From a virus (lineage: Duplodnaviria > Heunggongvirae > Uroviricota > Caudoviricetes), in the IMG/VR virus record IMGVR_UViG_3300042472_000628, positions 101,455 through 165,454 of that record: DNA of 64,000 bases; one strand, written 5' to 3'. The translations under genes were made by a program, and so were the position numbers. This document shows positions 3,637-42,030 of the stretch, one piece after another. The notes beneath the pieces were generated by a model. It was not told where the DNA came from. It searched no databases and worked only from the letters and a program-made list of their open reading frames with translations. Position 1 is the stretch's first letter. Each line of letters starts with the position of its first letter.

Positions 3637-3718
3637 TTGTTCGTAACTTTTTTAAAAATACTTGACATAATGCTTTTTTATGTCAAGTTTTTCACGTATA
3701 TTTACATTATAATTAAAA
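3637..3718 (+). promoter_or_regulatory. conserved intergenic cassette 1: TTGTTCGTAACTTT + hairpin (cttgacat/atgtcaag) + TATATTTAC..TATAATTAAAA
   Basis: Motif repeated 11 times in the window at gene starts; ATG of the 3729 gene lies 11 nt downstream. Confidence 0.6.
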
Positions 3719-3728
3719 CAGTTAAACT

Positions 3729-4085
3729 ATGCAGATCAAAATTAATAAAGACCAAGAACAAGTTTTAAAGGACGCTATTGAACTTTACATCGAAAACCTA
3801 GTAGGTAAAGGTAAAAAGTACAACAATGCAGTTGAAATCTTAAATACGATTAATTCAACTGGATTAGTTACTGAAGAAACTAGAATTCCTAAGGTATTTA
3901 TAGAAAAACAATATATGTTCACATTTGCTGAAGGTGGTTGGAATACAGTTTGGGCTAAGACCAAGCGTGGAGCCATCCGAGCTGCCATGTCAGAGTATAA
4001 GGATTCAACTCTTAATCCTATTCCAAGTTCATTCCATGTGGCCACAGAAGCTGGTTTGAAATCAGCAATGAGTTTATTTTACTAA
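3729..4085 (+). CDS. hypothetical protein
   Basis: ORF track; preceded by cassette. Confidence 0.45.
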   Translation: MQIKINKDQEQVLKDAIELYIENLVGKGKKYNNAVEILNTINSTGLVTEETRIPKVFIEKQYMFTFAEGGWNTVWAKTKRGAIRAAMSEYKDSTLNPIPSSFHVATEAGLKSAMSLFY

Positions 4086-4156
4086 TTGTTCGTAACTTTT
4101 AGCAAATAAATTTTTTATTGTCAAATATTTGTAGTATATTAGCCTTATAATTAAAA
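4086..4156 (+). promoter_or_regulatory. conserved intergenic cassette 2 (TTGTTCGTAACTTTT ... TTTTTTATTGTCAA ... TATATTAGCCTTATAATTAAAA)
   Basis: Same motif as the other cassettes; lies upstream of the sigma factor gene. Confidence 0.6.
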
Positions 4157-4174
4157 ACTTAAAAAAACAATCAT

Positions 4175-4789
4175 ATGTCAAAACAACCAAAACAACTTAG
4201 TTACAGAGAATTATCAGAAAACTTTATTCGTACTAAATCAGAAAAGGACTACAATGCTCTTTATGCACGAGTAAAACCAGGACTTAAAAACTATATTGCA
4301 AATGTAGTTAAGGATTCTGAAGCTACTGATGATATTCTTACTAATACTCTAACAAAAATGTGGACTAAGATTGATCAATATGATCCATCATACCAAATTA
4401 CAACTTGGTTATATCGCATCGCATTTAATGAGTGTCTTGGATGGATTCGTCAACGTAACTCTAAATATAGTATTGATACTATGAAAGAGTATGGTATTGA
4501 AATCTCTGAACAGTTTAGTCACACTTCTGCTAAAGACTTGTTGATCGAGTCAGAATTCAAGACTGAAGCAGATTGGTTATTAGAAGATCAAGATTTGACT
4601 AATCGTTATGAATTGGCTTTGAATAACATCAATGATTTGAAACCAATGTATAAAGAGATTATCGAAGATCGATTACTTAATGACATGAAATACGAAGATA
4701 TTGCTGAAAAGTACAATCTTCCATTGCAGACTATCAAGAACAGAATTCGTCGAGGTAAGTCTATCATTGCAGAAAATATGGGATATTAA
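4175..4789 (+). CDS. phage-encoded sigma-70 family (ECF-like) RNA polymerase sigma factor
   Basis: Region 2-like block DDILTNTLTKMWTKIDQYDPSYQITTWLYRIAFNECLGWIRQR; region 4 HTH-like C-terminus YEDIAEKYNLPLQTIKNRIRRGK. Confidence 0.65.
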   Translation: MSKQPKQLSYRELSENFIRTKSEKDYNALYARVKPGLKNYIANVVKDSEATDDILTNTLTKMWTKIDQYDPSYQITTWLYRIAFNECLGWIRQRNSKYSIDTMKEYGIEISEQFSHTSAKDLLIESEFKTEADWLLEDQDLTNRYELALNNINDLKPMYKEIIEDRLLNDMKYEDIAEKYNLPLQTIKNRIRRGKSIIAENMGY

Positions 4790-4942
4790 TTCGATATTTT
4801 TTAAAAAAAGAGATGAAACAAAAAATAAAGGGGATATATAAATCTCATGATGACAACATTTACATATAATTTAGACACTGACAGGTTACAGGAATGTAGC
4901 TCAAAGGCTCTCTTTATGTAAAGTTAACACAACACTATCATG

Positions 4943-4975
4943 AAAAAGAGTCTCCGAAAGAGACTCTTTTTTTTG
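4943..4975 (+). terminator. rho-independent terminator hairpin (aagagtctc-cgaa-gagactctt + T8)
   Basis: Perfect inverted repeat followed by a T-run, downstream of the sigma factor gene. Confidence 0.6.
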
Positions 4976-5052
4976 AAACAAACTCAACGCTATCGGTATA
5001 AAGATAGTAAATAACAAAATGAGTTCATTGACATATTGGTAAGAAAGAAAAT

Positions 5053-5137
5053 ACTCGGGTGGCGAAATCGGTAAACGCGCTGGACTTAAACTCCAGTGGA
5101 CATTGTGTCCTTGCGGGTTCAAGTCCCGCCCCGAGTA
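5053..5137 (+). tRNA. tRNA-Leu (anticodon TAA), class II with long variable arm
   Basis: Acceptor actcggg/cccgagt; Leu-type D arm; anticodon loop cTTAAAc; T loop GGGTTCAAGTCCC. Confidence 0.75.
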
Positions 5138-5149
5138 CAACAAAAAAAT

Positions 5150-5223
5150 GATTCGATAGCTCAACTGGATAGAGCAACGCCCTTCTAAGGCGTAGGTTGA
5201 AGGTTCGACTCCTTCTCGAATCA
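5150..5223 (+). tRNA. tRNA-Arg (TCT)
   Basis: Acceptor gattcga/tcgaatc; D arm tagctcaactggatagagca; anticodon stem acgcc/ggcgt with loop cttctaa. Confidence 0.75.
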
Positions 5224-5266
5224 CAATCTAAACATGGTGTTTAGAGGTTAAAACAAAAACAAAAAG

Positions 5267-5624: not shown

Positions 5625-5639
5625 CAAAATATAAAGGAT

Positions 5640-5712: not shown

Positions 5713-5720
5713 AGAAAAGC

Positions 5721-6399: not shown

Positions 6400-6403
6400 A
6401 TTT

Positions 6404-6588: not shown

Positions 6589-6672
6589 AGTGATTTGGGA
6601 TTATAGTACAATAGGATAGTATAAAGCGACAGTAGTTGCGACAACATGGGTTCGAGTCCCATTATTTCCACA
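6589..6672 (+). other. tRNA-like element with canonical T arm (atgggttcgagtcccat), cloverleaf unresolved
   Basis: T loop and plausible acceptor (gggatta/tatttcc, 1 mismatch) but D and anticodon arms could not be folded by eye. Confidence 0.25.
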
Positions 6673-7083
6673 AACAATTATTTCTTACCAATATGTCAAA
6701 TTGACTTATTTTTAAAATAAATTAGAAAAAAACACATAAATTGTGAAACTTTTAAAAAGTTAATGATATATACTATAATAATACAAAAAACAACAACGAT
6801 GAAACGCAACAACTTACATATAAAATATTGTCTACAGATGATTAGCTGGATATTTAATCCGGGGGTTAATCATGGGCGTGTCTTATCTATAAGTTGATAG
6901 TATAATTATTTCAACATTTAGTTAAACCAAGCCCATCAAAAAGCTTGGTTTTTTTTTGTTTAAAATTTTAAAACGTTTGGTTGGCCGATCGGTTAGGCGC
7001 AGGATTGCAAACTCTGTAAGGTTGGTTCGATTCCAACACTAAACTCAGAACAAAGAGTTCTTTGACATCTTGGTGAAAACGAT

Positions 7084-7323: not shown

Positions 7324-7402
7324 TTGTTCGTAACTTTTGAAAAATAATTACGAAAACTGTTTCCAGATTAAAAAACTTTGTGTATATTTACATATAATTA
7401 AT
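7324..7402 (+). promoter_or_regulatory. conserved intergenic cassette 3, located inside the tRNA array (TTGTTCGTAACTTTTG ... TGTATATTTACATATAATTAATAA)
   Basis: Same motif as the protein-gene cassettes; followed by a TTGACAT-TTGG motif and tRNA-Gly. Confidence 0.55.
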
Positions 7403-7439
7403 AACAAAAGCTCTTTGACATGTTGGAAATAACAAATAA

Positions 7440-7511: not shown

Positions 7512-7519
7512 CACAGATA

Positions 7520-8110
7520 AGACTGTTATTAATTCATAGAGCTACATATTGCGATCATAGAATTAAAGGTGTTGGCTTCAAGGACGCTAGTAGGGAAGTA
7601 CACTTAAATAAAACGTGCAACGGGGAAAGTGTCGACTTAAGAAACGGCAAGTACCAACGAAGCGTGTGGTATCCATCAAACGCCTCCACGTGGCGATACT
7701 GGAAATTAGTTATGGAACTTGCGCAAGGAAAGCAACTAAAACCAAGTTTGAAAAAGCATAGGTAACTGAAAAATGTGGTTCGAGTCCACACCCGTAATAG
7801 CCAAAGGGTTGAAGCATTGAGGTTGATGCATAAGTTATAACAGAGCTGCAGCTCTAGGATAGGTCTGGTTAAAGTAGGCAGTGCCAATACAAAAGGTTCG
7901 AATCCTTTCTATCCACAAATACATGAGCTTTGAAGCACAAGTGGACGTGCAACCGGTAAAAGGCCGGATTAGGTTATAGGTTCGAATCCTATCTCTGCTC
8001 CAAATGATTATGAGGCCATTGGTTGGCGGCACCTCACAAAGGTTGAGTTGAAATATACTCTTTATTGTAAAGCTGGAATTGGTTCGAATCCAATCATAAT
8101 TACAAAGAAG
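7520..8110 (+). other. block of at least four tRNA-like elements with canonical GGTTCGA(A/G)TCC T loops (near 7777, 7897, 7978, 8071) whose 5' halves do not fold into standard cloverleaves
   Basis: T-loop consensus matches; acceptor partners found for some (e.g. gattatg/cataatt spanning 8006-8101, about 95 nt) but D/anticodon arms unresolved. Confidence 0.3.
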
Positions 8111-8200
8111 ATGCCTGATCAGCAATATCTTCCTAACGATTAAGATTACATATAGCTTAAAGAAATTTGTCGACACTAATTTCTGTAATTTTAATTGATT

Positions 8201-8276
8201 GCTTTACGTAGTTTAACTTGGTTTGGAACGCGGGCACTGAGCCCGAAGAGTATGGGTTCGAATCCCATGTAAAGAC
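8201..8276 (+). tRNA. tRNA, anticodon uncertain (possibly CTG, Gln)
   Basis: Acceptor gctttac/gtaaaga (1 mismatch); stem cggg/cccg with loop cactgag; T loop ATGGGTTCGAATCCCAT. Confidence 0.4.
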
Positions 8277-8355: not shown

Positions 8356-8408
8356 CAAATCTTAAGAAGTAATTAATCTTAAGACTGAATGGTTCGAAAC
8401 ATTCGGAA

Positions 8409-8499
8409 TGATTATGGTGTATGGTGCACAGTAGAAGTTAGTAAGCACATAGTGACTGAGGGCGGACACAGGATTAAGGTTCAAATCCTTATTAATCAG
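8409..8499 (+). tRNA. class II (long variable arm) tRNA-like, anticodon unresolved
   Basis: Acceptor tgattat/ttaatca (6 of 7 bp), T loop AAGGTTCAAATCCTT, length about 91 nt. Confidence 0.3.
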
Positions 8500-8505
8500 C
8501 AAAAT

Positions 8506-8806: not shown

Positions 8807-9002
8807 CAAATAATAAGTTGATATGCTGTGAAAACCGAAATGAGCGCAAGTTGAGGTTAGGTGGGTTCGAATCCTGTTCAATAATTCCTATGTGGTGGAG
8901 CCAAGTAACAGATAACATATCATAGCCGATTTGGGTTGTGCACCTCGTCCGAGAAGCCCTAATAGTTCCTAATAGTTCGGTATGGAACAACTTATTATTA
9001 AT

Positions 9003-9374: not shown

Positions 9375-9379
9375 CACAT

Positions 9380-9507
9380 GATTGTACTTGTGCAGGGAAG
9401 CACAGCCCACCGGTAAATTGGGTGCCTTTTAGGCTAGGTTAATTTAAAGATGATGAAGTATCGATCAAGTAATCATCAGGGTTCGAGTCCTCTTACAATC
9501 ACGAAGA
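9380..9507 (+). ncRNA. about 128-nt tRNA-like RNA (perfect 7-bp acceptor gattgta/tacaatc + T-loop-like cagggttcgagtcct) with about 55 extra nt of internal hairpins
   Basis: Acceptor pairing and T loop seen directly; internal hairpins tgtgc-agggaa-gcaca and cacc-ggtaaattg-ggtg; may be an intron-containing tRNA or a stable small RNA. Confidence 0.35.
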
Positions 9508-9532
9508 GAAAAGCGAATAGTAATAATATTAG

Positions 9533-9604
9533 CGGCGATTAGTGGAGTGGTGACCACGCTGGCTATAGGGGCCGGAGAAGCAAGTTCGATTCTTGTATTG
9601 TCGT
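9533..9604 (+). tRNA. tRNA, anticodon uncertain (loop tataggg gives TAG, but no long variable arm and A33)
   Basis: Acceptor cggcgat/attgtcg (2 GU); D stem gtgg/ccac; T loop GCAAGTTCGATTCTTGT. Confidence 0.4.
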
Positions 9605-9795
9605 TATAAAATACTGGCCGCAATAAAATAAACCGGAAGTGTAGTAACGTGACAGATACTTAAGTTGCAAATAAAGTATTTGGTGTAGTTAAGTCTTACG
9701 TGGATTCGCGGTCTTAGGTAAGATGTTTATTTTATACTCTTTTTAAAAGTTTTTAGGGTGGTTCTGGTTCTTCAAAAACGCTATCACCTCCACCA

Positions 9796-10514: not shown

Positions 10515-10599
10515 CAAAAAATGAAACTTTTTTAATTGATCAAGTATAATTATCAAATAACAAAGTTCTTTAAAATATTAAAGGTTTCTTACAGCAATT

Positions 10600-10725
10600 A
10601 AAAAGCAATCAGAACCGGTACATTGTAGGTTCGAGTCCTACCTCCTCAACAAATTAACTATGAAAAATTGAGGAGTGGTGAAATTGGTAAACACACTGGT
10701 AAGCAAAAACAGAAACCTGACCATA
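10600..10725 (+). other. apparently permuted tRNA: T arm + 3' acceptor strand (gtaggttcgagtcctac-ctcctca, ending about 10648) lies UPSTREAM of its complementary 5' acceptor + D arm (tgaggag-tg-gtg-aaattggtaaa-cac, from about 10669)
   Basis: Exact complementarity ctcctca/tgaggag seen in sequence; halves are in reversed order on the same strand. Confidence 0.3.
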
Positions 10726-10914
10726 TTGGAATACATACAGCAAATTTACAAACTTTGACTTTTACTCAAACAAACTGTATTCCGTATTTTTAAAATATAA
10801 AGGATGCTTCCAGCAAATTTAAAAACTTTTATTGGAAAAAGCAAATCAGCATCCTGTTATTTTATTCATTTAACTAGCCAGCTTTATTAGATACATATAT
10901 AAATATTACAACAA

Positions 10915-11607
10915 ATGAAAACACATATAATTTATCTAAAGGGCAATGAATTCTCAGAGACCATGGTAAAAGATACCATAAAGTCTTTGAACAAATTCGA
11001 TATCGACTATGAATTATTTGATGGAGTTGTAGGCAGAAAAGGCATTGAAGTTTTAAAATCTTATAATGCAAAACCCTCAGCATATGTTAATATGGAAGAT
11101 TGGACCGATGGTACTATCGGTTGTTTAGCAAGTCATTATTTATTATGGGACGAGTGCTCTAAACAAGATCAACCTTTTTTAATTCTTGAACAAGATGCTG
11201 TTTTAGTTAGAGATCCTAGAGAAATACTACACTTAATAGAAAATGCATGTCATTTAGATGCATATTTACCCTTTAATAATTCAGGTGCTGTTACAGAACA
11301 TGAACACTTTAAAGCTTATAATGATGCTATCAAACTTTATACTAGTGGAGTTAAAAAACACCCTATTAGTAAATTTTATGGAGATAAGTCTGTAACTGGA
11401 AGCACTTTTAGAGGCGCATATGGATATATAATAACACCCAAAGGTGCCCAAGAAATCTTAAATTTTATAAATAAAAAAGGTATATTTCCAGCAGATGCAT
11501 GTTTATGTGAAAATGCTACAGATATTCAAAGATCAAATAGTACATACGTTAGATTAAATCCATTTTTCGAAACATTGGACTTACAAAGAAAATTTTCATC
11601 AAGATAA
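10915..11607 (+). CDS. glycosyltransferase family 25 (LOS/LPS beta-glycosyltransferase-like)
   Basis: GTIGCLASHYLLWDE motif and overall layout typical of GT25 (Lic2B/LgtB-like). Confidence 0.55.
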   Translation: MKTHIIYLKGNEFSETMVKDTIKSLNKFDIDYELFDGVVGRKGIEVLKSYNAKPSAYVNMEDWTDGTIGCLASHYLLWDECSKQDQPFLILEQDAVLVRDPREILHLIENACHLDAYLPFNNSGAVTEHEHFKAYNDAIKLYTSGVKKHPISKFYGDKSVTGSTFRGAYGYIITPKGAQEILNFINKKGIFPADACLCENATDIQRSNSTYVRLNPFFETLDLQRKFSSR

Positions 11608-11685: not shown

Positions 11686-11689
11686 CATA

Positions 11690-11717
11690 AAAAAAGCCGC
11701 AATTTGCGGCTTTTTTC
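11690..11717. terminator. bidirectional rho-independent terminator (A6-gccgcaa-at-ttgcggc-T6) between convergent + and - strand genes
   Basis: Perfect 7-bp hairpin flanked by an A-run and a T-run. Confidence 0.7.
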
Positions 11718-11734: not shown

Positions 11735-14365
11735 TTAACTAAAAGATATTGATATTGGATCACCATATACAAATGATGAAGCTGCTGTTACAGTTTGAGT
11801 TGCTGCAGCAGTGTTAATACTTATAAAACCTGGACCTGCATTAACATACGCCATGTTTGACATAAGAGTGTAAGTTGCTGTATTACCATTTTGTGTAACT
11901 GATATAGTTCCACCGTTATTTTGTAAAGCAGTGAATTGAGTTGTATAATCAGTACCTGCGCTGTCTTTTAAGCAAAAGTTAAGATAGTCAATTCCTGTAT
12001 TATTATTTGGATTAAATGTTGAAAGAGTTCCAGAACCTGAGTTATTATCTGTAAATATCGCTTGACCGTCTGATGTAGGAGGTCCAACTGTGAATGCTCC
12101 TTCAGCAGTATAGAAGTACCAAGAACCTGATCCAGTGTTTCCACCTCCACCGTTGTTTCCACCTTCATCTAAAACAAAAGGTCCTTTATAGTCTTTTGAA
12201 ATATAAACTCCATTTCCTCCTGCGCTCATGCTTAATACACTAATCATAGGAACATTACCTTCAATTGTATCAAATCCTCTTAAAATAGTAGAATTTATTG
12301 TTTCATAAACTAAAGGCATTGCTGTAAGAGTATTAACAACTAAACTTAGATCTTGCGTACTTCCAGGAATTTGATCCATTGAAATTCCGATTATATTGTA
12401 AACATTATATAAGTTACCTCCATTAGTTATTTCAATATTAGTGATTGAGCCACCAGAAACTGTAATTGTAAATTGTGCACCAGTACCTTCACTACCAGAA
12501 TAGTTAGCAGTTTGGTATACATTATAAACACCATCAGTATATGTAGATTCTCCTATGTTTATTGAAACTGTAGCTATAGAATTAAGTTTTTCTTTAAAAT
12601 TCACACCAGATAAACCAACAACATCAACTTTATTATTTTGAAACCAATGACCGATATTATTAGTACTAAAGTTATCAGCGATATGATTACTATAAAAATA
12701 TTCACCAATGTTATTACCAGTAAAGAAATTACCAATTACATTTCCTCTTGATTCACCATAACCAAATCCAAAGTCTGATGCAATAGTGTTATTGGTAAAA
12801 TTATGACCAATTGTATTGAATCTAAAATCATATCCAATTGTATTATTTTGAAAATTATTACCGATGGTGTTATTATCACCACCTTCTAATATATTAGCTA
12901 TAAAATAATTACCAATTACATTATCACCGAAATTGTTTGTGATTTTATTTTCTCTAAATGCATTTCCAATTCTATTGTTTTCAAACGTATCATGGCAAAT
13001 GTTATTACCGAAATCAAAATCAATAGTGTTAGCTATAAATGTATCGTCTATTATGTTTCTTTGAAAATCATCATTGATGATATTTTTCATGAACTCACCG
13101 TTTGACATAGTTACGAAATTATATTTAAAATTATTTCGTATAACATTATTACTAAAATCATAACCATCATTATCAGCTAAAGTATTATGTTCAAAGCCAT
13201 CACCAATTTGATTTCTAGCCATATCACAATCAATCCAGTTATTTGTAAAATAATTTCCAATGGTGTTTCTATCAAAATCATCAGTCATGATATTATTTTG
13301 GAAATAAAGACCTATTCTGTTACCGTCCATATCATCATCAAATGTATTATTTTGTACATTAGCACCAAAATAATTATCATTATATGTACCGTCTAAGAAA
13401 ACATTATTTGATAAAATAAAAGAATTATAGTCTCTATTATCACCTAAATAAGTATTATTACTATCGTTATCATTAAACGTATAAAATTGTTCAGAATTGA
13501 AACGCAAAGATGGTGCATTACATTTAAATGGACTTCTAAGACCTTTTGTCCAACCTTTAGAATATGTAGCGTTATATTCCCAACCATATGAAATACCAGC
13601 AACAGTCATTGTTGTATCATTTTCAATTCCAACAACTTCATAGAAGTTATGACAACCGATATTATTTGTGTTAAAAACAGCAAGATAATCACCAACATAG
13701 AAACTATTTGTAAAACTAGTATTAGTTCCGGTTACTGTTGCATGCATTATTGGTCCATCAGGTCCGATTAATTGTTCTTGTGTTTCAGGATTATACACGA
13801 AAAAAGGTTCTCCAACACTAACAGTACCTTCATAATAAGAATCTGCCATTAAAGCTTCATGTCTTATAAATTGTACATTTCTAAAATCATAATCAGCTCT
13901 ATTATTTCTTTCATCGATTCTTTCTGTAATTCTACCTTTAGCACCACTATTAGTAAACTCAGTTTGATTCCAAGTAACGTCATATTGAATTTTGTCTTTA
14001 GGATATTCTGGTGAATAAGTTGTTGATGAAATTCTATCTGCAGCTAAAGCCAAAACCATTAATGACTCAATATTACCAACTTTATATGTGTTTTCATTAC
14101 TGATAGCATTACCATTCCAGTCAAAATTAGGTTGATCATAGCATGTTTGGAAATCTGTTATCATATAGAAGTTACCCGGTACTAAACCAACAACTGATAT
14201 TAATCCTGTTAATTCAGCATAAGTTAGTTCTGTGTAGTTTACACCTGCAATTTCAGAATATGGTACATGAACTGTAGCACCATTTTTTTCAGCTAAAAAT
14301 AATGTAGTAGCTGTAACTTGATCAATTGGATTTAATTGACCTATTGTTTTTGGAGTTAATGACAT
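11735..14365 (-). CDS. tail fibre / receptor-binding protein with long run of N-x-(I/F)-G-x-N-F beta-helix-type repeats and Gly-rich C-terminal region
   Basis: 876-aa ORF; central region is about 25 degenerate repeats (NNIxxDxFxxNxIGNxF...); composition typical of phage fibres/spikes. Confidence 0.55.
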   Translation of the reverse strand: MSLTPKTIGQLNPIDQVTATTLFLAEKNGATVHVPYSEIAGVNYTELTYAELTGLISVVGLVPGNFYMITDFQTCYDQPNFDWNGNAISNENTYKVGNIESLMVLALAADRISSTTYSPEYPKDKIQYDVTWNQTEFTNSGAKGRITERIDERNNRADYDFRNVQFIRHEALMADSYYEGTVSVGEPFFVYNPETQEQLIGPDGPIMHATVTGTNTSFTNSFYVGDYLAVFNTNNIGCHNFYEVVGIENDTTMTVAGISYGWEYNATYSKGWTKGLRSPFKCNAPSLRFNSEQFYTFNDNDSNNTYLGDNRDYNSFILSNNVFLDGTYNDNYFGANVQNNTFDDDMDGNRIGLYFQNNIMTDDFDRNTIGNYFTNNWIDCDMARNQIGDGFEHNTLADNDGYDFSNNVIRNNFKYNFVTMSNGEFMKNIINDDFQRNIIDDTFIANTIDFDFGNNICHDTFENNRIGNAFRENKITNNFGDNVIGNYFIANILEGGDNNTIGNNFQNNTIGYDFRFNTIGHNFTNNTIASDFGFGYGESRGNVIGNFFTGNNIGEYFYSNHIADNFSTNNIGHWFQNNKVDVVGLSGVNFKEKLNSIATVSINIGESTYTDGVYNVYQTANYSGSEGTGAQFTITVSGGSITNIEITNGGNLYNVYNIIGISMDQIPGSTQDLSLVVNTLTAMPLVYETINSTILRGFDTIEGNVPMISVLSMSAGGNGVYISKDYKGPFVLDEGGNNGGGGNTGSGSWYFYTAEGAFTVGPPTSDGQAIFTDNNSGSGTLSTFNPNNNTGIDYLNFCLKDSAGTDYTTQFTALQNNGGTISVTQNGNTATYTLMSNMAYVNAGPGFISINTAAATQTVTAASSFVYGDPISISFS

Positions 14366-14387
14366 TTTTGTTAAATTTATTTTTTGT

Positions 14388-14834: not shown

Positions 14835-14901
14835 ATTTCATACTTTTTTATAATTATATATTTAGAGGAATATATAGAATATACTTAAAAATAAGACAGT
14901 T

Positions 14902-16868: not shown

Positions 16869-16950
16869 TTGTTCGTAACTTTTACGAAAATAATTAGCCA
16901 AACATTTTTTTGTTTGGCTTTTTTTGTGTATATTAGCTCTATAATTAAAA
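16869..16950 (+). promoter_or_regulatory. conserved intergenic cassette 4 (TTGTTCGTAACTTTT; hairpin agccaaaca-T7-tgtttggct; GTATATTAGCTCTATAATTAAAA)
   Basis: Motif instance; the stop codon of the 16267 gene lies just before TTGTTCG. Confidence 0.6.
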
Positions 16951-16961
16951 AACAAACAGAT

Positions 16962-17464: not shown

Positions 17465-17620
17465 ATGAAAGTAATTTACATGGAGCCTACAATTCAAATG
17501 TTGGCATTTTTAAACAAAGAAAATCCTAATTATGTTAAAACACTTATTGAAAGTGGTACAGTTAAAGAATTAGAAGGTGGTCAAAAATATTTAGTAATCG
17601 AAGATAAAACAGAAGTATAA
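17465..17620 (+). CDS. small hypothetical protein (51 aa)
   Basis: Hand translation MKVIYMEPTIQMLAFLNKENPNYVKTLIESGTVKELEGGQKYLVIEDKTEV; stop overlaps next start (TAATG). Confidence 0.3.
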   Translation: MKVIYMEPTIQMLAFLNKENPNYVKTLIESGTVKELEGGQKYLVIEDKTEV

Positions 17621-21112: not shown

Positions 21113-21193
21113 TTGTTCGTAACTTTATGAAAATAATTAAGCCCAAATTTTTTAGTTTGGGCTTTTTTTCGTATATTAGCTTAGTAATTAAAA
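21113..21193 (+). promoter_or_regulatory. conserved intergenic cassette 5 (TTGTTCGTAACTTTATG; hairpin gcccaaa-T6-agtttgggc; GTATATTAGC..TAATTAAAAG)
   Basis: Motif instance. Confidence 0.6.
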
Positions 21194-21203
21194 GATAAAC
21201 AAA

Positions 21204-21430: not shown

Positions 21431-21775
21431 ATGAAAATTTATACATTTCCTCGCAGTGCTTTTTACGGTGATGTTTTTGGCATAGTTAAGACCATATCTG
21501 GTACATATGTATGTCCAGGTTGGCATCGTGTAGCAGAAGGTACTACTAGAGAGCAAATTAAGTTTGAGGCAGCAGTTAATATACCTAAAAAAGAAACTCG
21601 ACCAGAGTCACCTAAAAAAGAATGGCAGGTAAATGGTTCTAAAGTTGGTGTAAATTATACAGTTTCAGATACTAATGGATCTTGGAATTGTACATGTCCA
21701 TCAAAAAGCTTCCACCGAGGTGATTGTAAACATATTAAAGCAAAAAAAGCTGAATTGTTAATAACTTTATCTTAA
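21431..21775 (+). CDS. SWIM-type zinc-finger protein
   Basis: C-x-C-x10-C-x-H (CTCPSKSFHRGDCKH). Confidence 0.45.
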   Translation: MKIYTFPRSAFYGDVFGIVKTISGTYVCPGWHRVAEGTTREQIKFEAAVNIPKKETRPESPKKEWQVNGSKVGVNYTVSDTNGSWNCTCPSKSFHRGDCKHIKAKKAELLITLS

Positions 21776-21780
21776 TATAT

Positions 21781-21825
21781 TTTTTTATATCAAATATTAG
21801 TTGTATATTAGCCTTATAATTAAAA
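21781..21825 (+). promoter_or_regulatory. conserved promoter cassette 6 (T7-ATATCAA ... TGTATATTAGCCTTATAATTAAAA)
   Basis: Motif instance without the TTGTTCG part. Confidence 0.55.
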
Positions 21826-21835
21826 ACAAACAAAG

Positions 21836-25757: not shown

Positions 25758-26161
25758 TGAAAAGATTTAATGAATGGTGCGATCGAATGGATCAGAACCT
25801 AAAGAATTTTGATTGGAAAGAGATATTATACTTATTATTTCCATTTTCTTTATTCTATAAAAGAAAGCCTAAAAATGAAACTGGAAAGGCATTTGTTTAC
25901 GATACTAAAATAGGAAATCCTATACAAATCAGAAGCACCAGAAACATGTCTAATATGGAAATGATGTATGGCACTGATTTTTCTACAAGTGGATCTGGTA
26001 ATGCATCTACTAGCGGGAATTTTGCACTAGACATGTATAAAGCTGGAATTGCAAGAGAGATATGTGAAGAAATTATGAAAGGTAATCTTATAGATTGGGC
26101 AACAGAAGATACACCTAATGGTACTCAAATCACTGGGCGTATAATTGTTAACAAGTTTTGA
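25757..26161 (+). CDS. hypothetical protein
   Basis: ORF track. Confidence 0.4.
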   Translation: MKRFNEWCDRMDQNLKNFDWKEILYLLFPFSLFYKRKPKNETGKAFVYDTKIGNPIQIRSTRNMSNMEMMYGTDFSTSGSGNASTSGNFALDMYKAGIAREICEEIMKGNLIDWATEDTPNGTQITGRIIVNKF

Positions 26162-26180
26162 TAAAATAATCACACATATA

Positions 26181-26226
26181 TTTTTTTATGTCAAAACTTT
26201 TTGGTATATTTACATATAATTAAAAA
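26181..26226 (+). promoter_or_regulatory. conserved promoter cassette 7 (T7-ATGTCAAAAC ... GGTATATTTACATATAATTAAAAA)
   Basis: Motif instance. Confidence 0.55.
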
Positions 26227-26236
26227 CAACTTAAAG

Positions 26237-30947: not shown

Positions 30948-31024
30948 TGAAACAAAATAAAAGTATTTAATATAATACTTATAACCAGCATCCAACTAAC
31001 GACGGTTGCACAATAACATATATT

Positions 31025-31870: not shown

Positions 31871-32318
31871 AGAACAAATAAATGCAGACTTTATAACTGC
31901 AATGAAAGCAAAAGACGAAGTAGCCAAAATGGCACTTAATAGTATTAAAGCAGCAATCACGAATGCTGAAAAGGGAAATGGAACTTGGGTTGCAACGAAT
32001 GAAGAGGTTATTAAAATAATTAATAAAGGAATCAAGCAACGTGAGGAATCCATTAAAATGTATGATTTGGCAAATAGACCAGAATTGTCTAAAAAAGAAT
32101 CAGAAGAGTGTGCAATCTTAAGAAGATATATGCCAGCACAAATGGAACCTCAAGAAATTGTAGATGCTCTTACAGAAATTATGCAAGAATTTAGTGGAAT
32201 AGTTACAAATCCACAAGCATTACAAGGTAAAACTATTGGCGAATTTAACAAAAGATACCAAGGTCGTGCAGAAATCGGTATAGTTAAGAGTGTTTTAGCA
32301 AATCTTGTAGATTGTTAA
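31860..32318 (+). CDS. GatB/YqeY-domain protein
   Basis: Full-length match to the YqeY pattern (AMKAKD..., IKQREESIKMY, ILRRYMPAQM, GKTIGEFNKRYQGRAE). Confidence 0.55.
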   Translation: MIIREQINADFITAMKAKDEVAKMALNSIKAAITNAEKGNGTWVATNEEVIKIINKGIKQREESIKMYDLANRPELSKKESEECAILRRYMPAQMEPQEIVDALTEIMQEFSGIVTNPQALQGKTIGEFNKRYQGRAEIGIVKSVLANLVDC

Positions 32319-32324
32319 TAACTT

Positions 32325-32394
32325 TTTTAAAATAAATCACCTGATATTTTTTTATGTCAGGTTTTTTATGTATATTTACTCTATAATTAAAAAC
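32325..32394 (+). promoter_or_regulatory. conserved cassette 8 (degenerate TTGTTAATAACTTTTTT; hairpin acctga-T7AT-gtcaggt + T6; ATGTATATTTACTCTATAATTAAAA)
   Basis: Motif instance upstream of the NAMPT-like gene. Confidence 0.6.
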
Positions 32395-32403
32395 AATTAA
32401 TAT

Positions 32404-33984
32404 ATGAACCCATTATTTTTAACAGACGGTTACAAAACAGGACATCACCAACAATATCCAAAAGGAACAACGTTGGTTTATTCAAACTTCACACCTAGAA
32501 GTAATAAGTATGCTCCTAAAGGATGCGACCAATTAGTATCATTTGGACAACAAATGGTAATCAAACAAATTCACGAAGCATTTGACAAAGATTTCTTTAG
32601 CAAACCTAAAGATGAAGTTTGCGGCGAAATGAAACGTGAATTGTCAATGTACTTAAATACTGACTATGATGTTAGTCACTTTGAAGCATTACATGATTTA
32701 GGTTATTTACCAATCGTGGTAAAAACAATCGAAGAAGGTTCTTTAGTACCAATGAGAGTTCCTGTATTGACAATTTACAATACACATCCAGATTTCTATT
32801 GGATTACAAACTACTTAGAAACAATTATTTCTAACTTGTTATGGAAACCAATGACTTCAGCAACTATTGCACATGCTTACCGTAAATTATTTACATCATG
32901 GCAAGAAAAAACCGATGCTGAAAAAGGTTGGTTCGTAGATTGGCAAGCACATGATTTTTCAATGAGAGGTTTAGATTCTATTGATGCAACTATTAGTTCA
33001 GGATTGGGTCACTTAACAAGTTTCTCAGGTTCAGACAGTTTACCAGCAATCTTTGGAGCTCGTAAATTCTATGGAGAAACTGGATTTGTTGCTGGATCTG
33101 TGAATGCAACTGAACACTCAGTTATGTGTGCTGGATCTAAAGAAGATGAGGTTGGAACATTTAGAAACTTGATGGAAACATATCCAACAGGAATTCTTTC
33201 AATCGTATCAGATACTTGGGACTTATGGAAAGTTTGTACTGAACATATTGTTACCTTGAAAGAAGAGATTTTAGCTCGTGATGGTAAGGTAGTTATTAGA
33301 CCCGACTCTGGTGATCCAGTAGATATTATTTGCGGCGCAAGTGTTATTAAAACAAACGCGCACCATGATAATGATGTGGTTGCTTACTTAGGTGGAGTAG
33401 CAGAAGTTAATCCTACCGATGAATATTTAAACAAACCAGAAGTAAAAGGAGTTATTGAATTACTTTGGGATGTATTCGGTGGAACTATCAATGAACAAGG
33501 TTACAAAGTTCTTGATTCTCATATTGGAGCAATCTACGGAGATTCAATAACGTTAGATCGTGCAGAACAAATCTTTACAAGATTAGAAGCAAAAGGTTTC
33601 GCAAGTACAAATATTGTATTAGGCGTTGGAAGTTTTACATACCAATATAACACTAGAGATACTTTTGGTTTTGCAATGAAAGCAACTTATGTTGAAGTTA
33701 AAGAACATTTTAGAACTGTTAAAGACGAGAATGGTAACTATACACATTCAGAAGAAATCATCACAGGTCGTGAAATCTTTAAAGATCCAATCACTGATGA
33801 CGGTATTAAGAAATCTGCAAAAGGTTTATTAAGAGTTGCCGGAGACGAAACATGTTTCTTATTAGAAGATCAATGTACTTGGGAAAATGAAGCCACTGGT
33901 AAATTAAAAACTATCTATAAAGATGGCCAATTCGAAAACCAAACTACACTAACAGAAATTCGTGAACGTTTAACTAATTCATAA
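32404..33984 (+). CDS. nadV: nicotinamide phosphoribosyltransferase family protein (NadV/NAMPT-like); candidate nicotinamide ADP-ribose transferase if paired with an ADPR pyrophosphokinase
   Basis: N-terminus MNPLFLTDGYKTGHHQQYP and length 526 aa are diagnostic of the NAMPT family. Confidence 0.7.
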   Translation: MNPLFLTDGYKTGHHQQYPKGTTLVYSNFTPRSNKYAPKGCDQLVSFGQQMVIKQIHEAFDKDFFSKPKDEVCGEMKRELSMYLNTDYDVSHFEALHDLGYLPIVVKTIEEGSLVPMRVPVLTIYNTHPDFYWITNYLETIISNLLWKPMTSATIAHAYRKLFTSWQEKTDAEKGWFVDWQAHDFSMRGLDSIDATISSGLGHLTSFSGSDSLPAIFGARKFYGETGFVAGSVNATEHSVMCAGSKEDEVGTFRNLMETYPTGILSIVSDTWDLWKVCTEHIVTLKEEILARDGKVVIRPDSGDPVDIICGASVIKTNAHHDNDVVAYLGGVAEVNPTDEYLNKPEVKGVIELLWDVFGGTINEQGYKVLDSHIGAIYGDSITLDRAEQIFTRLEAKGFASTNIVLGVGSFTYQYNTRDTFGFAMKATYVEVKEHFRTVKDENGNYTHSEEIITGREIFKDPITDDGIKKSAKGLLRVAGDETCFLLEDQCTWENEATGKLKTIYKDGQFENQTTLTEIRERLTNS

Positions 33985-34720: not shown

Positions 34721-34999
34721 ATGAAAAATACATTAGGACTTATAAATTACGAAGGAGATTGTCTTAAATTAGTTAAAGACAATGATGCGCTTCATGTTAA
34801 AGATCAATATGGTCAAACTGTAATGCAGAATATTACAGTAGAAAGGATATATGAATTTATATCGGGTACCATAAGTATCACTGATAGTGAAGGTAAAGGT
34901 TGGTGGTTTACATTAGAACATGAGAACGCAAAACCATCACTTTTTAAAATACACGAATTCCTTAAAGACATTAACATTAAAATCTGCAAATGTTCGTAA
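34721..34999 (+). CDS. hypothetical protein (terminates inside the TGTTCGTAA motif)
   Basis: ORF track. Confidence 0.4.
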   Translation: MKNTLGLINYEGDCLKLVKDNDALHVKDQYGQTVMQNITVERIYEFISGTISITDSEGKGWWFTLEHENAKPSLFKIHEFLKDINIKICKCS

Positions 35000-35070
35000 C
35001 TTTTTAAAAAATAATCAGTCAAACATTTTTTTGTTTGGCTTTTTTTATGTATATTAGCCTTATAATTAAA
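34990..35070 (+). promoter_or_regulatory. conserved cassette 9 (TGTTCGTAACTTTTT; hairpin agtcaaaca-T7-tgtttggct; ATGTATATTAGCCTTATAATTAAAAG)
   Basis: Motif instance. Confidence 0.6.
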
Positions 35071-35081
35071 AGATAAACAAT

Positions 35082-35574: not shown

Positions 35575-36282
35575 ATGAGAATAACATTAATTTCAGATAC
35601 TCACACAAAGCACGATGAGTTATCTTACGACCCTAAAGATCTCCCAGGTGGAGACTTATTAATCCACGCAGGAGACCTTATGAATTCTGGTAGAAATCCA
35701 ATGGATATTCACCAATTTTGTAAATGGTTTGAAGGATTAGAGCAATATAGCAATAAAGTTTTTATTGCAGGAAATCATGACAGAATCTTTGAAACTGACC
35801 CAGAAATGGCAAGTGAGATTTATACCTCTTATAAAAACATTGAATATCTTCAAGATAATCGATTAGATCTATGGGATCAAGATGACCAACAAACCGTTAT
35901 TTATGGTAGTCCATGGCAACCTGAATTCTATAGTTGGGCATTTAACTTACCAAAGGGTGGTCCTGGATTAATGTCAAAATGGGAAGCAATTCCTAAAGAT
36001 ACTGATATTCTTATCACACATGGACCTCCACAAGATCATTTAGATGTGAGTGGTCCTCCATATAATGAACCACATTTAGGATGTGCATTACTTAGAGAAA
36101 AGGTAGATGAACAACCACCTAAGATTCATGTATTTGGACACATTCACGGTGGATATGGTTACAAATTCCACAACGGTACTCACTTCTTTAACGCATCAAT
36201 CTTAAACGAAAGATATGAATATGTGAATAAGCCTGTAACGTTCGATTGGGATCCTGAAACTAATGAAATAACTTTTATATAA
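35575..36282 (+). CDS. calcineurin-like metallophosphoesterase
   Basis: ISDTHTKH, GDL, GNHD, GHIHGG motifs. Confidence 0.6.
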   Translation: MRITLISDTHTKHDELSYDPKDLPGGDLLIHAGDLMNSGRNPMDIHQFCKWFEGLEQYSNKVFIAGNHDRIFETDPEMASEIYTSYKNIEYLQDNRLDLWDQDDQQTVIYGSPWQPEFYSWAFNLPKGGPGLMSKWEAIPKDTDILITHGPPQDHLDVSGPPYNEPHLGCALLREKVDEQPPKIHVFGHIHGGYGYKFHNGTHFFNASILNERYEYVNKPVTFDWDPETNEITFI

Positions 36283-40076: not shown

Positions 40077-40238
40077 TTGAAAAGAAGTAAAACAAACAGT
40101 TACCTCGGAGGTGTCTGCGGTGGTATTGCTAAAGCTACTGGAACATCAGCTATAGCATGGCGATTAATATTCTTACTTGTACCATATACATTCTGGATAT
40201 ATGTTGCATTGTGGATAGGACTATTAGAAGAAGATTAA
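40077..40238 (+). CDS. small PspC-domain membrane protein (TTG start proposed)
   Basis: Hand translation ...KRSKTNSYLGGVCGGIAKATGTSAIAWRLIFLLVPYTFWIYVALWIGLLEED matches the PspC pattern (R-x-x-I-a-G-V-C-G-G-l-A...R-l-f-v-l); no in-frame ATG. Confidence 0.35.
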   Translation: MKRSKTNSYLGGVCGGIAKATGTSAIAWRLIFLLVPYTFWIYVALWIGLLEED

Positions 40239-40307
40239 TTCACACAGTATTGAAACAAACCAAAACAGCCCAGTATAACATATATAATAAATAAACAAAT
40301 ATAAAAC

Positions 40308-40481
40308 ATGGAAACATTAGCACAAATTCAAGAAGTATTAAACGCAGTTCAAGCTGACGCAACAAAATTCTTCGAAAACGGAAACAAAGCAGCTGGAACA
40401 AGAGTTCGTAAAGCTATGCAAGAGATCAAAAACTTAGCACAAGTTGTTAGAACAGAAGTATCTGAGAAGAACAACGCCTAA
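40308..40481 (+). CDS. histone H1-like small DNA-binding protein (Bacteroidetes type)
   Basis: Hand translation METLAQIQEVLNAVQADATKFFENGNKAAGTRVRKAMQEIKNLAQVVRTEVSEKNNA. Confidence 0.45.
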   Translation: METLAQIQEVLNAVQADATKFFENGNKAAGTRVRKAMQEIKNLAQVVRTEVSEKNNA

Positions 40482-40703
40482 TTAAACCTTAAAAAACTGT
40501 TCGAGTAGGCGTTAACGACTTATTCACTCTGACGCTAAAGTGGTGGACAAATATATAGATAAAGGTCACTAGTCAATAACGATAAGTAGTGGTTCTAATA
40601 CTGAACCTGAGGCTAGAGCGGTTGGATCCCGAAGTAATATGAGTTTTAAATGGAATAGGCTAGTTTCTCACATTGCTAAAATTAATAAGATATATAATAT
40701 CAC

Positions 40704-40777
40704 GGGGGTGTAGCTCAGTTGGCTAGAGCATCTGCCTTGCACGCAGAGGGTCGCAGGTTCGATTCCTGTCACCTCCA
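40704..40777 (+). tRNA. tRNA-Ala (TGC)
   Basis: Acceptor gggggtg/cacctcc with G3-U70; D arm tagctcagttggctagagca; anticodon stem tctgc/gcaga with loop cttgcac. Confidence 0.7.
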
Positions 40778-40781
40778 CTAA

Positions 40782-40815
40782 AAAAGACTCATCGAATGAT
40801 GAGTCTTTTTGGTTT
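40782..40815 (+). terminator. rho-independent terminator (aagactcatc-gaat-gatgagtctt + T5)
   Basis: Perfect 10-bp hairpin and T-run directly after tRNA-Ala. Confidence 0.65.
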
Positions 40816-40824
40816 AACAAACAA

Positions 40825-40903
40825 TTGTTCGTAACTTTATGAAAATAATTAGCCAAATATTTTTTTGTTTGGCTTTTTTTGTGTATATTAGCTCTATAAT
40901 TAA
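40825..40903 (+). promoter_or_regulatory. conserved cassette 10 (TTGTTCGTAACTTTATG; hairpin agccaaata-T7-gtttggct; GTGTATATTAGCTCTATAATTAAAAG)
   Basis: Motif instance. Confidence 0.6.
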
Positions 40904-40915
40904 AAGATAATCATT

Positions 40916-41830
40916 ATGGAAAATTCAATTAAAGTAGGTTACGATTCTCAAACAGGTTTATATGTAGTTAAAACTATCTATAATAGAGCTCTTATTGTTA
41001 ACGGTAAACCATTAGTAGATGCCTTAAGAGGTACTTCAAACGGTTCAGATCTTATTACTATTTCTGAGAAACCAGAAACTATCACATATAAAAGTTCTAG
41101 TCGTAATTTAATCGGTTATGATAATGTAGAAAACATGACCACAATCAGTTTAAAAGAATATAACAAAATTCTTGAAAAAGTTGTTGAGTCAAAAACTTAT
41201 AATGAAGAACTCGACGAAGATGTTTATAACACAATCGAGGATGAGGTATTTGCTACACGTTTCTTTAGAACTTATAAAGCAATTTATGAAAATATTGAAG
41301 AGATTCACAATATGGAAATCGAGATCATTGAATATCCAGTAAGCGCATATAAAAATATTGTACCATTGCACTCAATGGATGCTAAACATATTCTTGAAAC
41401 TAATTGTAAATTTACACCAAACAATAACGAATTATTCTTTGAAGTTTGTGCAAGTTTTGGAATTGACAAAACAAGAATCGATATTCCTACACATTCTGGT
41501 TTAAGATTTGTTAAGATTGACGGTTCTTATGTTAGTGGAATGGAAGATTTTGAAAAATCTGCAAGTCTTTCTATTATTTCAACATATGATAAGTGTATTG
41601 AAAGAATGAATGATAATCGTAAGAAATTAGAGGACTTAATTAGTTTCCATTTAGCAAAACAATCTCAGAAGAAAGTAAATGATGCAACTGTTGGAAACTT
41701 ATTGACTCAATTACAACATTTGCAAAATTCAGTTAGAAGTTTAGATGTTAAAGCAAAAGAACACAACTCTCAAAGATCAATTTTAACCAGAATTGGTGAA
41801 TTAATTGTAACTTATAAAGAACAAGCATAA
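40916..41830 (+). CDS. hypothetical protein
   Basis: ORF track. Confidence 0.45.
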   Translation: MENSIKVGYDSQTGLYVVKTIYNRALIVNGKPLVDALRGTSNGSDLITISEKPETITYKSSSRNLIGYDNVENMTTISLKEYNKILEKVVESKTYNEELDEDVYNTIEDEVFATRFFRTYKAIYENIEEIHNMEIEIIEYPVSAYKNIVPLHSMDAKHILETNCKFTPNNNELFFEVCASFGIDKTRIDIPTHSGLRFVKIDGSYVSGMEDFEKSASLSIISTYDKCIERMNDNRKKLEDLISFHLAKQSQKKVNDATVGNLLTQLQHLQNSVRSLDVKAKEHNSQRSILTRIGELIVTYKEQA

Positions 41831-41973
41831 TGAAAGAGACTAAGAAAATCAAATTAGAAAAAATTAACATAACATTACAAGAATGGTTTGATGCTCTTAA
41901 AGTGCCTGCACCTTATCGTAATAAAAAGAAGTATTATCGCAAAGACAAACATAAAAAGAATGATTGTTCGTAA
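41830..41973 (+). CDS. small basic hypothetical protein (47 aa) whose stop lies in the TTGTTCGTAA motif
   Basis: Hand translation MKETKKIKLEKINITLQEWFDALKVPAPYRNKKKYYRKDKHKKNDCS. Confidence 0.3.
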   Translation: MKETKKIKLEKINITLQEWFDALKVPAPYRNKKKYYRKDKHKKNDCS

Positions 41974-42030
41974 CTTTTTTAAAATATATTTTTTTATGTC
42001 AAATATTAGTATTATATTTACCCTATAACA
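41963..42030 (+). promoter_or_regulatory. conserved cassette 11 (TTGTTCGTAACTTTTTT; T7-ATGTCAAAT; TATTATATTTACCCTATAACAATTAAAA)
   Basis: Motif instance. Confidence 0.55.

Follow-up and report, generated by a model that had tools for sequence, protein, structure and literature searches.

We analysed a 64-kb stretch of DNA (the window), which covers positions 101,455 to 165,454 of IMG/VR record IMGVR_UViG_3300042472_000628, from a large uncultured phage of the Caudoviricetes. Its intergenic regions carry eleven copies of a composite cassette, one of which precedes a gene for a sigma factor of the extracytoplasmic function (ECF) type. We put at roughly 60% the probability that the cassettes are early promoter modules of a phage with a probable Bacteroidota host, and that the phage sigma factor then reads a second motif, TGAAAC-N17-TATAA. 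Below, the core of the cassette is called class A and the second motif class B.

The proposed mechanism is as follows. The class A core, made up of a T-run at -36 to -31, T-rich positions at -28/-26 and -19 to -16 and a -7 box TATATT(AG/TA) at -12 to -5, would be read by the host RNA polymerase with the host housekeeping sigma factor. Transcription would start 4-5 nt past the -7 box, at the first A of ATAATTAAAA, to give an A-rich leader of 20-21 nt that lacks a Shine-Dalgarno (SD) site; its AAAA run would lie at -11 to -14 from the AUG, a stretch that is A-rich in Bacteroidota mRNAs. A nested hairpin, present in about half of the copies, would stop read-through from upstream right before the new start. 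A 14-bp box, TTGTTCGTAACTTT or TTGTTAATAACTT, located 25, 35, 45 or 56 bp from the -7 box and on one face of the helix, would be the site of a putative protein that acts on RNA polymerase at the core, as an activator or as a shut-off repressor. One cassette would express the phage ECF sigma factor, which would then read class B sites before tRNAs and before genes of nucleotide metabolism and DNA replication. The cassettes, being homologous repeats at gene borders, could double as recombination joints.

Eleven cassettes on one strand

An earlier reading of the window (the original prediction) had described eleven copies of the cassette. The repeat is real: an nhmmer profile built from the 11 aligned copies recovered those 11 only within the 64 kb, with E-values of 1e-10 to 2e-19. 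All are on the + strand, and each runs from the stop codon of the upstream gene, which the box adjoins or includes, to the next start codon or, in one case, to a tRNA gene. When up to two mismatches were allowed, the box TTGTTCGTAACTTT was found 10 times against 1.4 expected, and TATATTWRC-N3-ATAATTAAAA gave 8 strong matches against 1.3 expected, in both cases on the + strand only. The composition is modular, with a 14-bp box (10/11 copies), an optional terminator hairpin (6/11), a core GTATATT(AG/TA)C and the A-rich leader ATAATTAAAA.

The original prediction had assigned every element to every copy. This holds for the core and leader, which were found in 11/11. The box is exact in seven copies, has one mismatch at 34990, takes the variant form TTGTTAATAACTTT at 21755 and 32312 and is degenerate (TTGTTAACAAGTTT) at 26145, and a stable hairpin followed by a T-run is present in six copies (dG -11 to -15 kcal/mol) and missing from the other five. 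A start codon shortly downstream was also correctly predicted, with ATG 10-18 nt past ATAATTAAAA in 10 copies, as was one copy within the tRNA array, at 7324, 45 nt 5′ of tRNA-Gly. Start positions were exact for the copies at 3637, 4086, 7324, 16869, 21113, 34990 and 40825, and four had to be shifted: 21781 and 26181 mark an internal T-run in copies whose boxes start at 21755 and 26145, 32325 is the final base of the box at 32312-32325, and 41963 should read 41964. The cassettes, with folding energies (dG) in kcal/mol, are:

3637..3728, + strand: cassette 1; box 3637-3650, hairpin 3660-3688 then T-run (dG -13.0), -7 box 3697-3704, box to -7 spacing 46, ATAATTAAAA 3709-3718, ATG 3729
4086..4174, + strand: cassette 2, short, no hairpin (dG -2.5); box 4086-4099, -7 box 4135-4142, spacing 35, sigma gene ATG 4175
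7324..7439, + strand: cassette 3, in the tRNA array, no hairpin; box 7324-7337, -7 box 7383-7390, tRNA-Gly 7440
16869..16961, + strand: cassette 4; box 16869-16882, hairpin 16896-16919 then T-run (dG -15), -7 box 16929-16936, ATG 16962
21113..21203, + strand: cassette 5; box 21113-21126, hairpin 21139-21164 (dG -15), -7 box 21172-21179, ATG 21204
21755..21835, + strand: cassette 6, short; variant box TTGTTAATAACTTT 21755-21768, -7 box 21804-21811, ATG 21836
26145..26236, + strand: cassette 7; degenerate palindromic box TTGTTAACAAGTTT 26145-26158, weak 5-bp hairpin, -7 box 26205-26212, ATG 26237
32312..32403, + strand: cassette 8; variant box 32312-32325, hairpin 32339-32362 (dG -14.2), -7 box 32371-32378, ATG 32404 (NAMPT)
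34990..35081, + strand: cassette 9; box 34990-35003, hairpin 35017-35040 (dG -11.2), -7 box 35050-35057, ATG 35082
40825..40915, + strand: cassette 10; box 40825-40838, hairpin 40851-40874 (dG -11.4), -7 box 40884-40891, ATG 40916
41964..42047, + strand: cassette 11, short; box 41964-41977, -7 box 42013-42020, ATG 42048

The genes that follow cassettes are mostly of unknown function, together with those for the sigma factor, a ligase, NAMPT and a PNKP phosphatase. When bacterial genomes were scanned for the box-plus-core pattern, 27 chance matches in unrelated taxa came up and no true cassette. We also considered a miniature inverted-repeat transposable element or other small mobile element; the 11-copy alignment showed neither terminal inverted repeats at the ends (TTGTTCGTAACTTT ... 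ATAATTAAAA) nor a target-site duplication common to the flanks.

The series goes on past the right end of the window. In locus L230, at positions corresponding to about 1.0 and 1.9 kb beyond that end, a full copy comprising box, hairpin and core (13613-13710) is followed by a degenerate one (GTACATTAGC, 14530-14610). Decayed core-like strings such as CATATTAGCTGGTATAACATTA, which score below the profile threshold, occur in the window at about 290-330, about 4855-4880 and about 14850-14880, and may be eroded cassettes.

The core resembles Bacteroidota promoters

No close relative at the DNA level, and no cultured relative, was found among the 50,697 phage records searched. Related loci were gathered from IMG/VR by a scan for the 14-mer box and then for orthologues of the sigma factor, which yielded about 100 loci (designated here by L and a number); 80 of these encode a sigma factor 54-99% identical to that of the window. 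They make up the family referred to below. Metagenomes contain over 1000 homologues of the sigma factor at E <=1e-20, on contigs of up to 271 kb.

In 129 unique cassette copies from the related contigs, T-12, A-11, T-8 and T-7 were conserved at 100%, and G is absent from -10 and -9. The -7 box was TATATTTA in 57 copies, TATATTAG in 56 and TATATTTG in 10. Upstream of it, the frequency of T is 0.72-0.95 at -19 to -16, 0.93-0.95 at -28/-26 and 0.83-0.97 at -36 to -31. The ATAATTAAAA block corresponds to A-rich positions +2 to +9 and is separated from the core by 2-3 nt, or by 6 nt in the copy at 41964. All 132 core matches in sigma-oriented loci were on the + strand. About half of the family copies carry the box and about half the hairpin, each independently of the other.

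Bacteroidota housekeeping promoters, recognized by sigma-ABfr, have the elements -33 TTTG and -7 TAnnTTTG; in Flavobacterium johnsoniae the latter was refined to TAHHTTTG, located at -12 to -5 and followed by 4-5 nt to the transcription start, with motifs rich in A and T at -18 and -28 and a TTTG at -33 that is weak (PMC6847099). The class A core of the window copies fits this F. johnsoniae consensus, TAHHTTTG, at 5/6 near-invariant positions. The two have in common T-12, A-11, T-8 and T-7 as invariant bases, a lack of G at -10 and -9, T-rich sequence at about -18 and -28 together with the T-run at -36 to -31, and a predicted leadered transcript without an SD site, and the AT-rich blocks of the cassette lie one and two helical turns upstream, as in Bacteroidota sigma-A promoters. 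Every one of the 11 window copies has TATATTAG or TATATTTA as its -7 box, each one mismatch from TAHHTTTG, and a perfect TATATTTG is found before the sigma gene of seven loci with sigma orthologues (L146, L148, L155, L159, L165, L184 and L187). In contrast to host promoters, the cassette is conserved from -55 to +10, far beyond the extent of theirs.

The predicted leader is 20-21 nt long in 8/10 of the window copies that precede an open reading frame (ORF), with ATG 20-28 nt past the predicted transcription start, and in the family its length peaks at 19-22 nt. SD-like motifs precede just 2/75 genes of the window, whereas A is found at -3 in 68% and at -11 to -13 in 64-68% of them; translation signals in F. 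johnsoniae follow a similar pattern, A-rich at -3 and -11 to -13 with SD sites rare (PMC6847099). These figures support the earlier proposal of an AT-rich initiation region, and ATAATTAAAA fits the part of a translation initiation region without an SD site. As far as can be judged from sequence, the co-orientation with genes, the fixed distance to the start codon and the invariant -7/-10-like box support a promoter anatomy for the cassettes.

Two other placements of promoter elements were rejected. If TATAAT inside ATAATTAAAA is taken as a sigma-70 -10 element, the base equivalent to A-11 is A in 40% of family copies only and G in 40%, and no -35 element lies 16-18 bp upstream. The strings TGTCAA/TTGACA, taken as a -35 element, are just 10 nt from TATATT and >=21 nt from TATAAT; they form the 3′ arm of some hairpins.

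A putative terminator nested in the predicted promoter

The copies at 3637, 16869, 21113, 32312, 34990 and 40825 have a stable hairpin of 9-11 bp followed by a T-run, whereas folding of those at 4086, 7324, 21755, 26145 and 41964 gave dG values of -3.5 or weaker. In the former six, a GC-containing hairpin runs directly into a U-tract, as in an intrinsic terminator; the other five lack this arrangement. The -36 to -31 T-run forms the loop of the hairpin and the -19 to -14 T-block forms the U-tract. Given this position of the U-tract, transcripts from upstream would end just 5′ of the -7 box.

Each family sequence was also folded separately, and 53/117 unique copies reached dG <= -8, against 3.2 in shuffled sequences (maximum 6). 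The interval -45 to -20 is taken up, across the family, by over 25 distinct complementary stems. This excess over shuffles, together with so many differing stems in the same place, argues for selection for the hairpin itself. Alternative architectures exist in the family, in which the -33 T-run serves as the U-tract or the 14-bp box lies in the loop. A covariation model with a single hairpin in fixed register was rejected: it paired 46% of positions, no better than shifted controls, and the stems vary in register and in the length of their loops. From its structure, a built-in putative intrinsic terminator is supported for about half of the copies, and the original proposal that such a terminator would insulate the promoter from upstream genes may apply to these, the remaining copies having no such structure.

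The upstream box is helically phased

In the family loci, the box consensus [AT]TGTT[ACT][AG][TC]AAC[TA]T was matched at 159 sites of the + strand and 8 of the - strand, and a class A core was located 3′ of the box in 108/111 unique contexts. The distance from the end of the box to T-12 was 25 bp (2 cases), 34-36 bp (16), 44-46 bp (83), 56-57 bp (6) or 63 bp (1). To examine phasing, intervening sequences were grouped into 32 clusters with <75% identity between them, for which the best period was 10.6 bp (R = 0.89). Tandem boxes are spaced 11 bp apart, and box centres fall at about -44.5, -54.5, -64.5 and -75.5. Two sequence variants of the box are conserved across phages whose sigma factors are 54-99% identical.

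Class I activator sites behave in a comparable way, with CRP sites at -61.5, -72.5 and -82.5, and the p4 sites of phage phi29 are another case. Like these, the box is tolerated solely at whole-helical-turn distances from the core promoter; unlike class I activator sites, it is asymmetric and occurs in a single orientation. Dependence on the face of the helix is a property of DNA, and it points to a protein that acts on the polymerase at the core promoter. We tentatively suggest, with less than even confidence, that the box is the operator of an undescribed phage or host regulator that contacts the Bacteroidota RNA polymerase from one helix face and switches about half of the early promoters on or off together. 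With the ECF sigma factor and TGAAAC-N17-TATAA, it would then form a complete, previously unknown temporal circuit in widespread uncultured Bacteroidota phages of 150-270 kb.

The box was also considered as an ECF -35 element with a -10 element of its own, and this was rejected: nothing is conserved 16-18 bp downstream, where the short and long forms of the cassette differ. A search of the literature for the box as a text string returned primers and genome-editing tags only.

In several cassettes (34990-34999, 41964-41973 and 32312-32318) a TAA within the box is the stop codon of the upstream ORF. That a cassette supplies the end of a gene would be expected if recombination joined genes to cassettes.

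The sigma gene and a second motif

The gene that follows cassette 2 is:

4175..4789, + strand: ECF-type sigma gene, 204 aa, with Sigma70_r2, Sigma70_r4_2 and TIGR02937 matches

The original prediction of a sigma-70/ECF-like gene at this place, itself preceded by a cassette, was borne out. Profile searches detected regions 2 and 4 (Pfam Sigma70_r2, PF04542, 2e-10; Sigma70_r4_2, PF08281, 8e-8), the score against TIGR02937 sigma70-ECF was 67 bits, above the cutoff of 42.9, and the cassette at 4086-4174 runs up to the ATG at 4175. The best-matching subfamily is Bacteroidetes ECF, with SigW next.

The sigma gene lies 3′ of a class A core in 90/90 family cases, as the first gene in 79, the second in 10 and the third in 1, and it was never found 3′ of class B in these 90 cases. 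If a phage sigma factor could be made solely from promoters that it reads itself, its first synthesis would pose a bootstrapping problem. Initial expression of phage sigma genes usually relies on promoters of host type, as in phiEco32 and 7-11 (PMC4331800) and in SPO1. The location of the sigma gene under a class A core in 90/90 cases makes it more likely that the cassette is an early promoter for the host polymerase.

ECF sigma factors recognize an AAC-containing -35 element with a spacer of 16-17 bp, which for SigW of Bacillus subtilis is TGAAAC. The cassette does not have such an element: 16-18 bp 5′ of its -7 box there is the T-run or hairpin loop, and the AAC of the 14-bp box sits 28-59 bp upstream. 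A motif of this geometry was found by reading the intergenic regions without a cassette, and had been missed in the original prediction. The window contains 8 exact class B matches, where 0.19 would be expected, each of them on the + strand; they are listed here with one variant site:

4814..4841, + strand: class B, just 3′ of the sigma gene
4974..5001, + strand: class B, abutting a hairpin at about 4947-4975; 5′ of tRNA-Leu 5053
10522..10549, + strand: class B, end of the tRNA array
30948..30975, + strand: class B, 5′ of the Thg1-like gene 31025
36255..36282, + strand: class B, 5′ of gene 36288
40251..40278, + strand: class B, 5′ of gene 40308
44474..44501, + strand: class B, heading a + strand gene run of about 17 kb (44517-61278) with no cassette within
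61319..61346, + strand: class B, past a hairpin at about 61290-61313; 5′ of gene 61379
22665, + strand: variant class B site with an N18 spacer

Class B occurs 46 times in 240 kb of family loci, whereas unrelated loci gave a single match in 908 kb. The sigma-oriented loci, 1.3 Mb in total, had 192 sites on the + strand and 0 on the - strand. Searching from TGAAAC alone, the spacer to TATAA was 17 in 145 cases and 18 in 33, with <=3 cases at any other length. Class B shows the bipartite geometry of sigma-70-family promoters and has the features of an ECF promoter, with an AAC-containing -35 element, a 16-18 bp spacer, strand specificity and a location 5′ of genes. The sites cluster just 3′ of the sigma gene and often abut a hairpin and T-run. 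In relatives they are found 5′ of clamp-loader, DNA-polymerase and primase genes, and also 5′ of genes for an Fpg/Nei-like glycosylase, a guanylate kinase and an epimerase. Class B is probably a better candidate than the cassette for the target of the phage ECF sigma factor. The gene content of class A and class B targets is suggestive only as a clue to timing.

Several of the loci L238-L297 (IMG/VR contigs of up to 430 kb) have 2-4 class B sites and no class A in the fetched stretch, for example L248, L242, L244 and L255. Class B may be used more widely than the cassette.

Alternative explanations

Several observations weigh against the reading of the cassettes as host-polymerase early promoters followed by a sigma-dependent class B. 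The main one is that no window copy is a perfect TAHHTTTG. All deviate at -6 or -5, two positions that hardly vary in F. johnsoniae promoters, with TAG or TTA in place of TTG, and the mismatch is systematic, affecting 119/129 family copies; as just 10/129 are perfect, specialised recognition of the cassette is possible. At -33 the cassette has T, versus the G of TTTG. The -10 element of class B is TATAA, versus the CGT type that is typical of ECF sigma factors. Neither motif is enriched in LR756500, LR745206 or Lak-B2, distant phages whose sigma factors are 28-34% identical, so the link between sigma factor and class B rests on co-occurrence in one family. As for the role as recombination joints, cassettes hold 15/133 clusters of homology breakpoints, roughly in proportion to the gene boundaries that they make up. 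The systematic avoidance of the perfect host TATATTTG in these 119 copies also speaks for the original model, in which either the phage ECF sigma factor or a modified host polymerase recognizes the cassette as a phage-specific promoter class, the sigma gene being positively autoregulated. So do the long and specific conservation, covering about 23 bp from GTATATT to AAAA plus the upstream box, and the restriction of the cassette to the sigma-carrying phage family, with none in the 27 pattern-matching bacterial contigs. The 7-11/phiEco32 group, too, has phage-sigma promoters 5′ of the sigma gene (PMC4331800). Set against this are the bootstrapping problem, with class A the only promoter before the sigma gene in 90/90 cases, the T-run or hairpin loop where an AAC-type -35 element would be expected, the perfect host-type TATATTTG of some sigma promoters and the existence of a separate motif of ECF geometry that is equally family-specific. 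We consider this model unlikely. The promoter class of the original prediction keeps its support from sequence anatomy, whereas a host-like -7 box, the 90/90 class A cores before the sigma gene and the separate ECF-type motif leave its assignment to the phage sigma factor unsupported, and that attribution is probably wrong.

The cassettes could instead be host-polymerase promoters in which the box and the repeats serve mainly as recombination homology, either as joints or as substrates for mini-circles, with the spacings reflecting descent from a few archetypes. Homology with relatives does break at box starts or -7 boxes: in L125/L126 at window positions 3637 and 4135, flanking the replacement of 0.5 kb by 5.5 kb, in L132/L133 at about 3718 and 4110, and in L112 at 32370. 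Orthologues can have different forms of the cassette, since NAMPT has the 45-type with hairpin in the window and the 35-type in L112, the box is flush with or supplies the upstream stop codon, and a class of stem-loop cassettes in T4-like phages, compared below, comprises documented recombination joints (PMC2839356, PMC4122927). This explanation is nonetheless improbable, as the spacing classes hold in the 32 clusters that are <75% identical, with a scatter of about 1 bp and tandem boxes 11 bp apart, which argues for selection on phase and not for descent alone; in addition, the box is strictly oriented (159 versus 8), its two variants are conserved across divergent sigma factors and breakpoints are not enriched beyond the gene-boundary expectation. 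Finally, the elements might act at the RNA level, in 3′-end processing or stability of the upstream message or as a translation enhancer downstream, and not as promoters. Messages from upstream would carry the box, hairpin and U-tract at their 3′ ends, and ATAATTAAAA stands at a fixed distance from the AUG; against these stand the invariant T-12, A-11, T-8 and T-7 of a -10-like box, T-blocks one helical turn apart, the 5/11 copies without a hairpin, the copy that precedes a tRNA and not an ORF, the lack of a matching Rfam family and the helical phasing of the box, a property of DNA. We regard an RNA-level role as very improbable.

Comparison with known systems

The closest known analogue of the cassette is the promoter-early stem-loop (PeSL) of T4-like phages, in which a stop codon is followed by an AT-rich region, an early promoter for the host sigma factor, a variably placed stem-loop and translation signals; PeSLs are concentrated 5′ of genes of unknown function and serve as recombination joints (PMC2839356, PMC4122927). 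PeSL and cassette are both repeated intergenic modules that extend from an upstream stop codon to a downstream start codon, with an AT-rich upstream region, a promoter of host primary-sigma type (putative in the cassette) and an overlapping stem-loop at variable positions. Both are concentrated before small genes of unknown function. PeSLs, like some of the cassette copies, are found at junctions of insertions, deletions or replacements between related phages. The PeSL stem-loop is a terminator or attenuator, to which the cassette hairpin is likened by its structure. The PeSL promoter has TTGACA/TATAAT, whereas the cassette has a Bacteroidota-type -7 box with T-blocks; the SD site is replaced in the cassette by a conserved A-rich leader, and the helically phased 14-bp box has no PeSL counterpart. 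It is this phased upstream box that is new relative to PeSL-type cassettes. PeSLs belong to T4-like phages, and the present phage is not T4-like. With no near relative at the DNA level among the 50,697 phage records, no SD site and no TTGACA-N17-TATAAT geometry, the cassette is an analogue of PeSLs and not a member of the class.

A two-stage use of promoters is known from other phages. In phiEco32 and 7-11 (PMC4331800), and in SPO1, the phage sigma gene is expressed from host-sigma early promoters and its product reads a distinct, later class, which is what we propose here. The systems differ in that the phage promoter of the phiEco32 type is a single extended -10-like element (TAATGTATA), whereas class B is bipartite, and no anti-sigma or shut-off factor was identified in the present phage.

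The probable host and other features of the window

The window is 32.6% G+C, contains 26 tRNA genes and has almost every gene on the + strand. The nearest phage homologues of its sigma factor are in Lak and other huge phages of Bacteroidetes. On the basis of the SD-poor, A-rich translation starts, the Bacteroidetes ECF family as best match and these homologues, the host is very probably a member of the Bacteroidota.

The sole clear minus-strand island (11735-14834) encodes proteins of 876 aa and 148 aa without a Pfam or PHROG match and is closed by a bidirectional hairpin at about 11688-11712. The divergent intergenic region that faces it (14835-14901) contains decayed GTATATT-like strings on both strands.

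Genes for NAD salvage and RNA repair are located at 17620-18912, 26237-27133, 31025-31870, 32404-33984, 56595-57083 and 57666-58265. Members of this toolkit are NAMPT, a PRPP-synthetase-like protein, a NUDIX protein, a Thg1-like tRNA-His guanylyltransferase, an ATP-dependent ligase and a polynucleotide kinase. Alongside the 26 tRNA genes, the toolkit suggests a defence against host immunity that targets tRNA or NAD. The interval 51089-61043 contains envelope and sugar genes, which encode a 1067-aa multi-glycosyltransferase (Glyco_transf_9/1), an epimerase, a 4HBT thioesterase and a DAHP/KDO8P-synthase-like protein; they share one operon with a class B site at its head.

An Rfam scan of the window returned tRNAs only, with no family matching the cassette. 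It added a tRNA at 6597-6670 and omitted the ARAGORN calls at 8201 (8201-8276) and 9532 (9532-9605). Several T-arm-like strings (GGTTCGAATCC...) in gaps of the tRNA array (7513-8200, 8357-8505, 8808-9002, 9376-9531 and 10516-10918) were not called by ARAGORN and may be degenerate, split or intron-containing tRNAs. Directly 5′ of tRNA-Leu (5053) and tRNA-Gly (7440), at about 5026-5052 and about 7413-7439, is the motif TTTGACAT(A/G)TTGG(T/A)AA. The TTTGACAT motif also occurs on the - strand at about 6680-6700, beside the Rfam tRNA at 6597-6670, and is present in the relative L067. It may serve as a signal in the leader or processing of tRNAs, or be a further promoter.

Implications

The proposed two-class grammar would sort the genes of an abundant uncultured phage family into likely early and middle sets from sequence alone, and the phased box points to a concrete candidate for a regulator. 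For genetics in Bacteroidota, the cassettes offer compact candidates for promoter, terminator and leader parts. The PeSL-like design, in which a terminator is nested in a strong early promoter and reused as a joint, seems to have arisen independently in this family, whose probable host differs greatly in its signals for transcription and translation.

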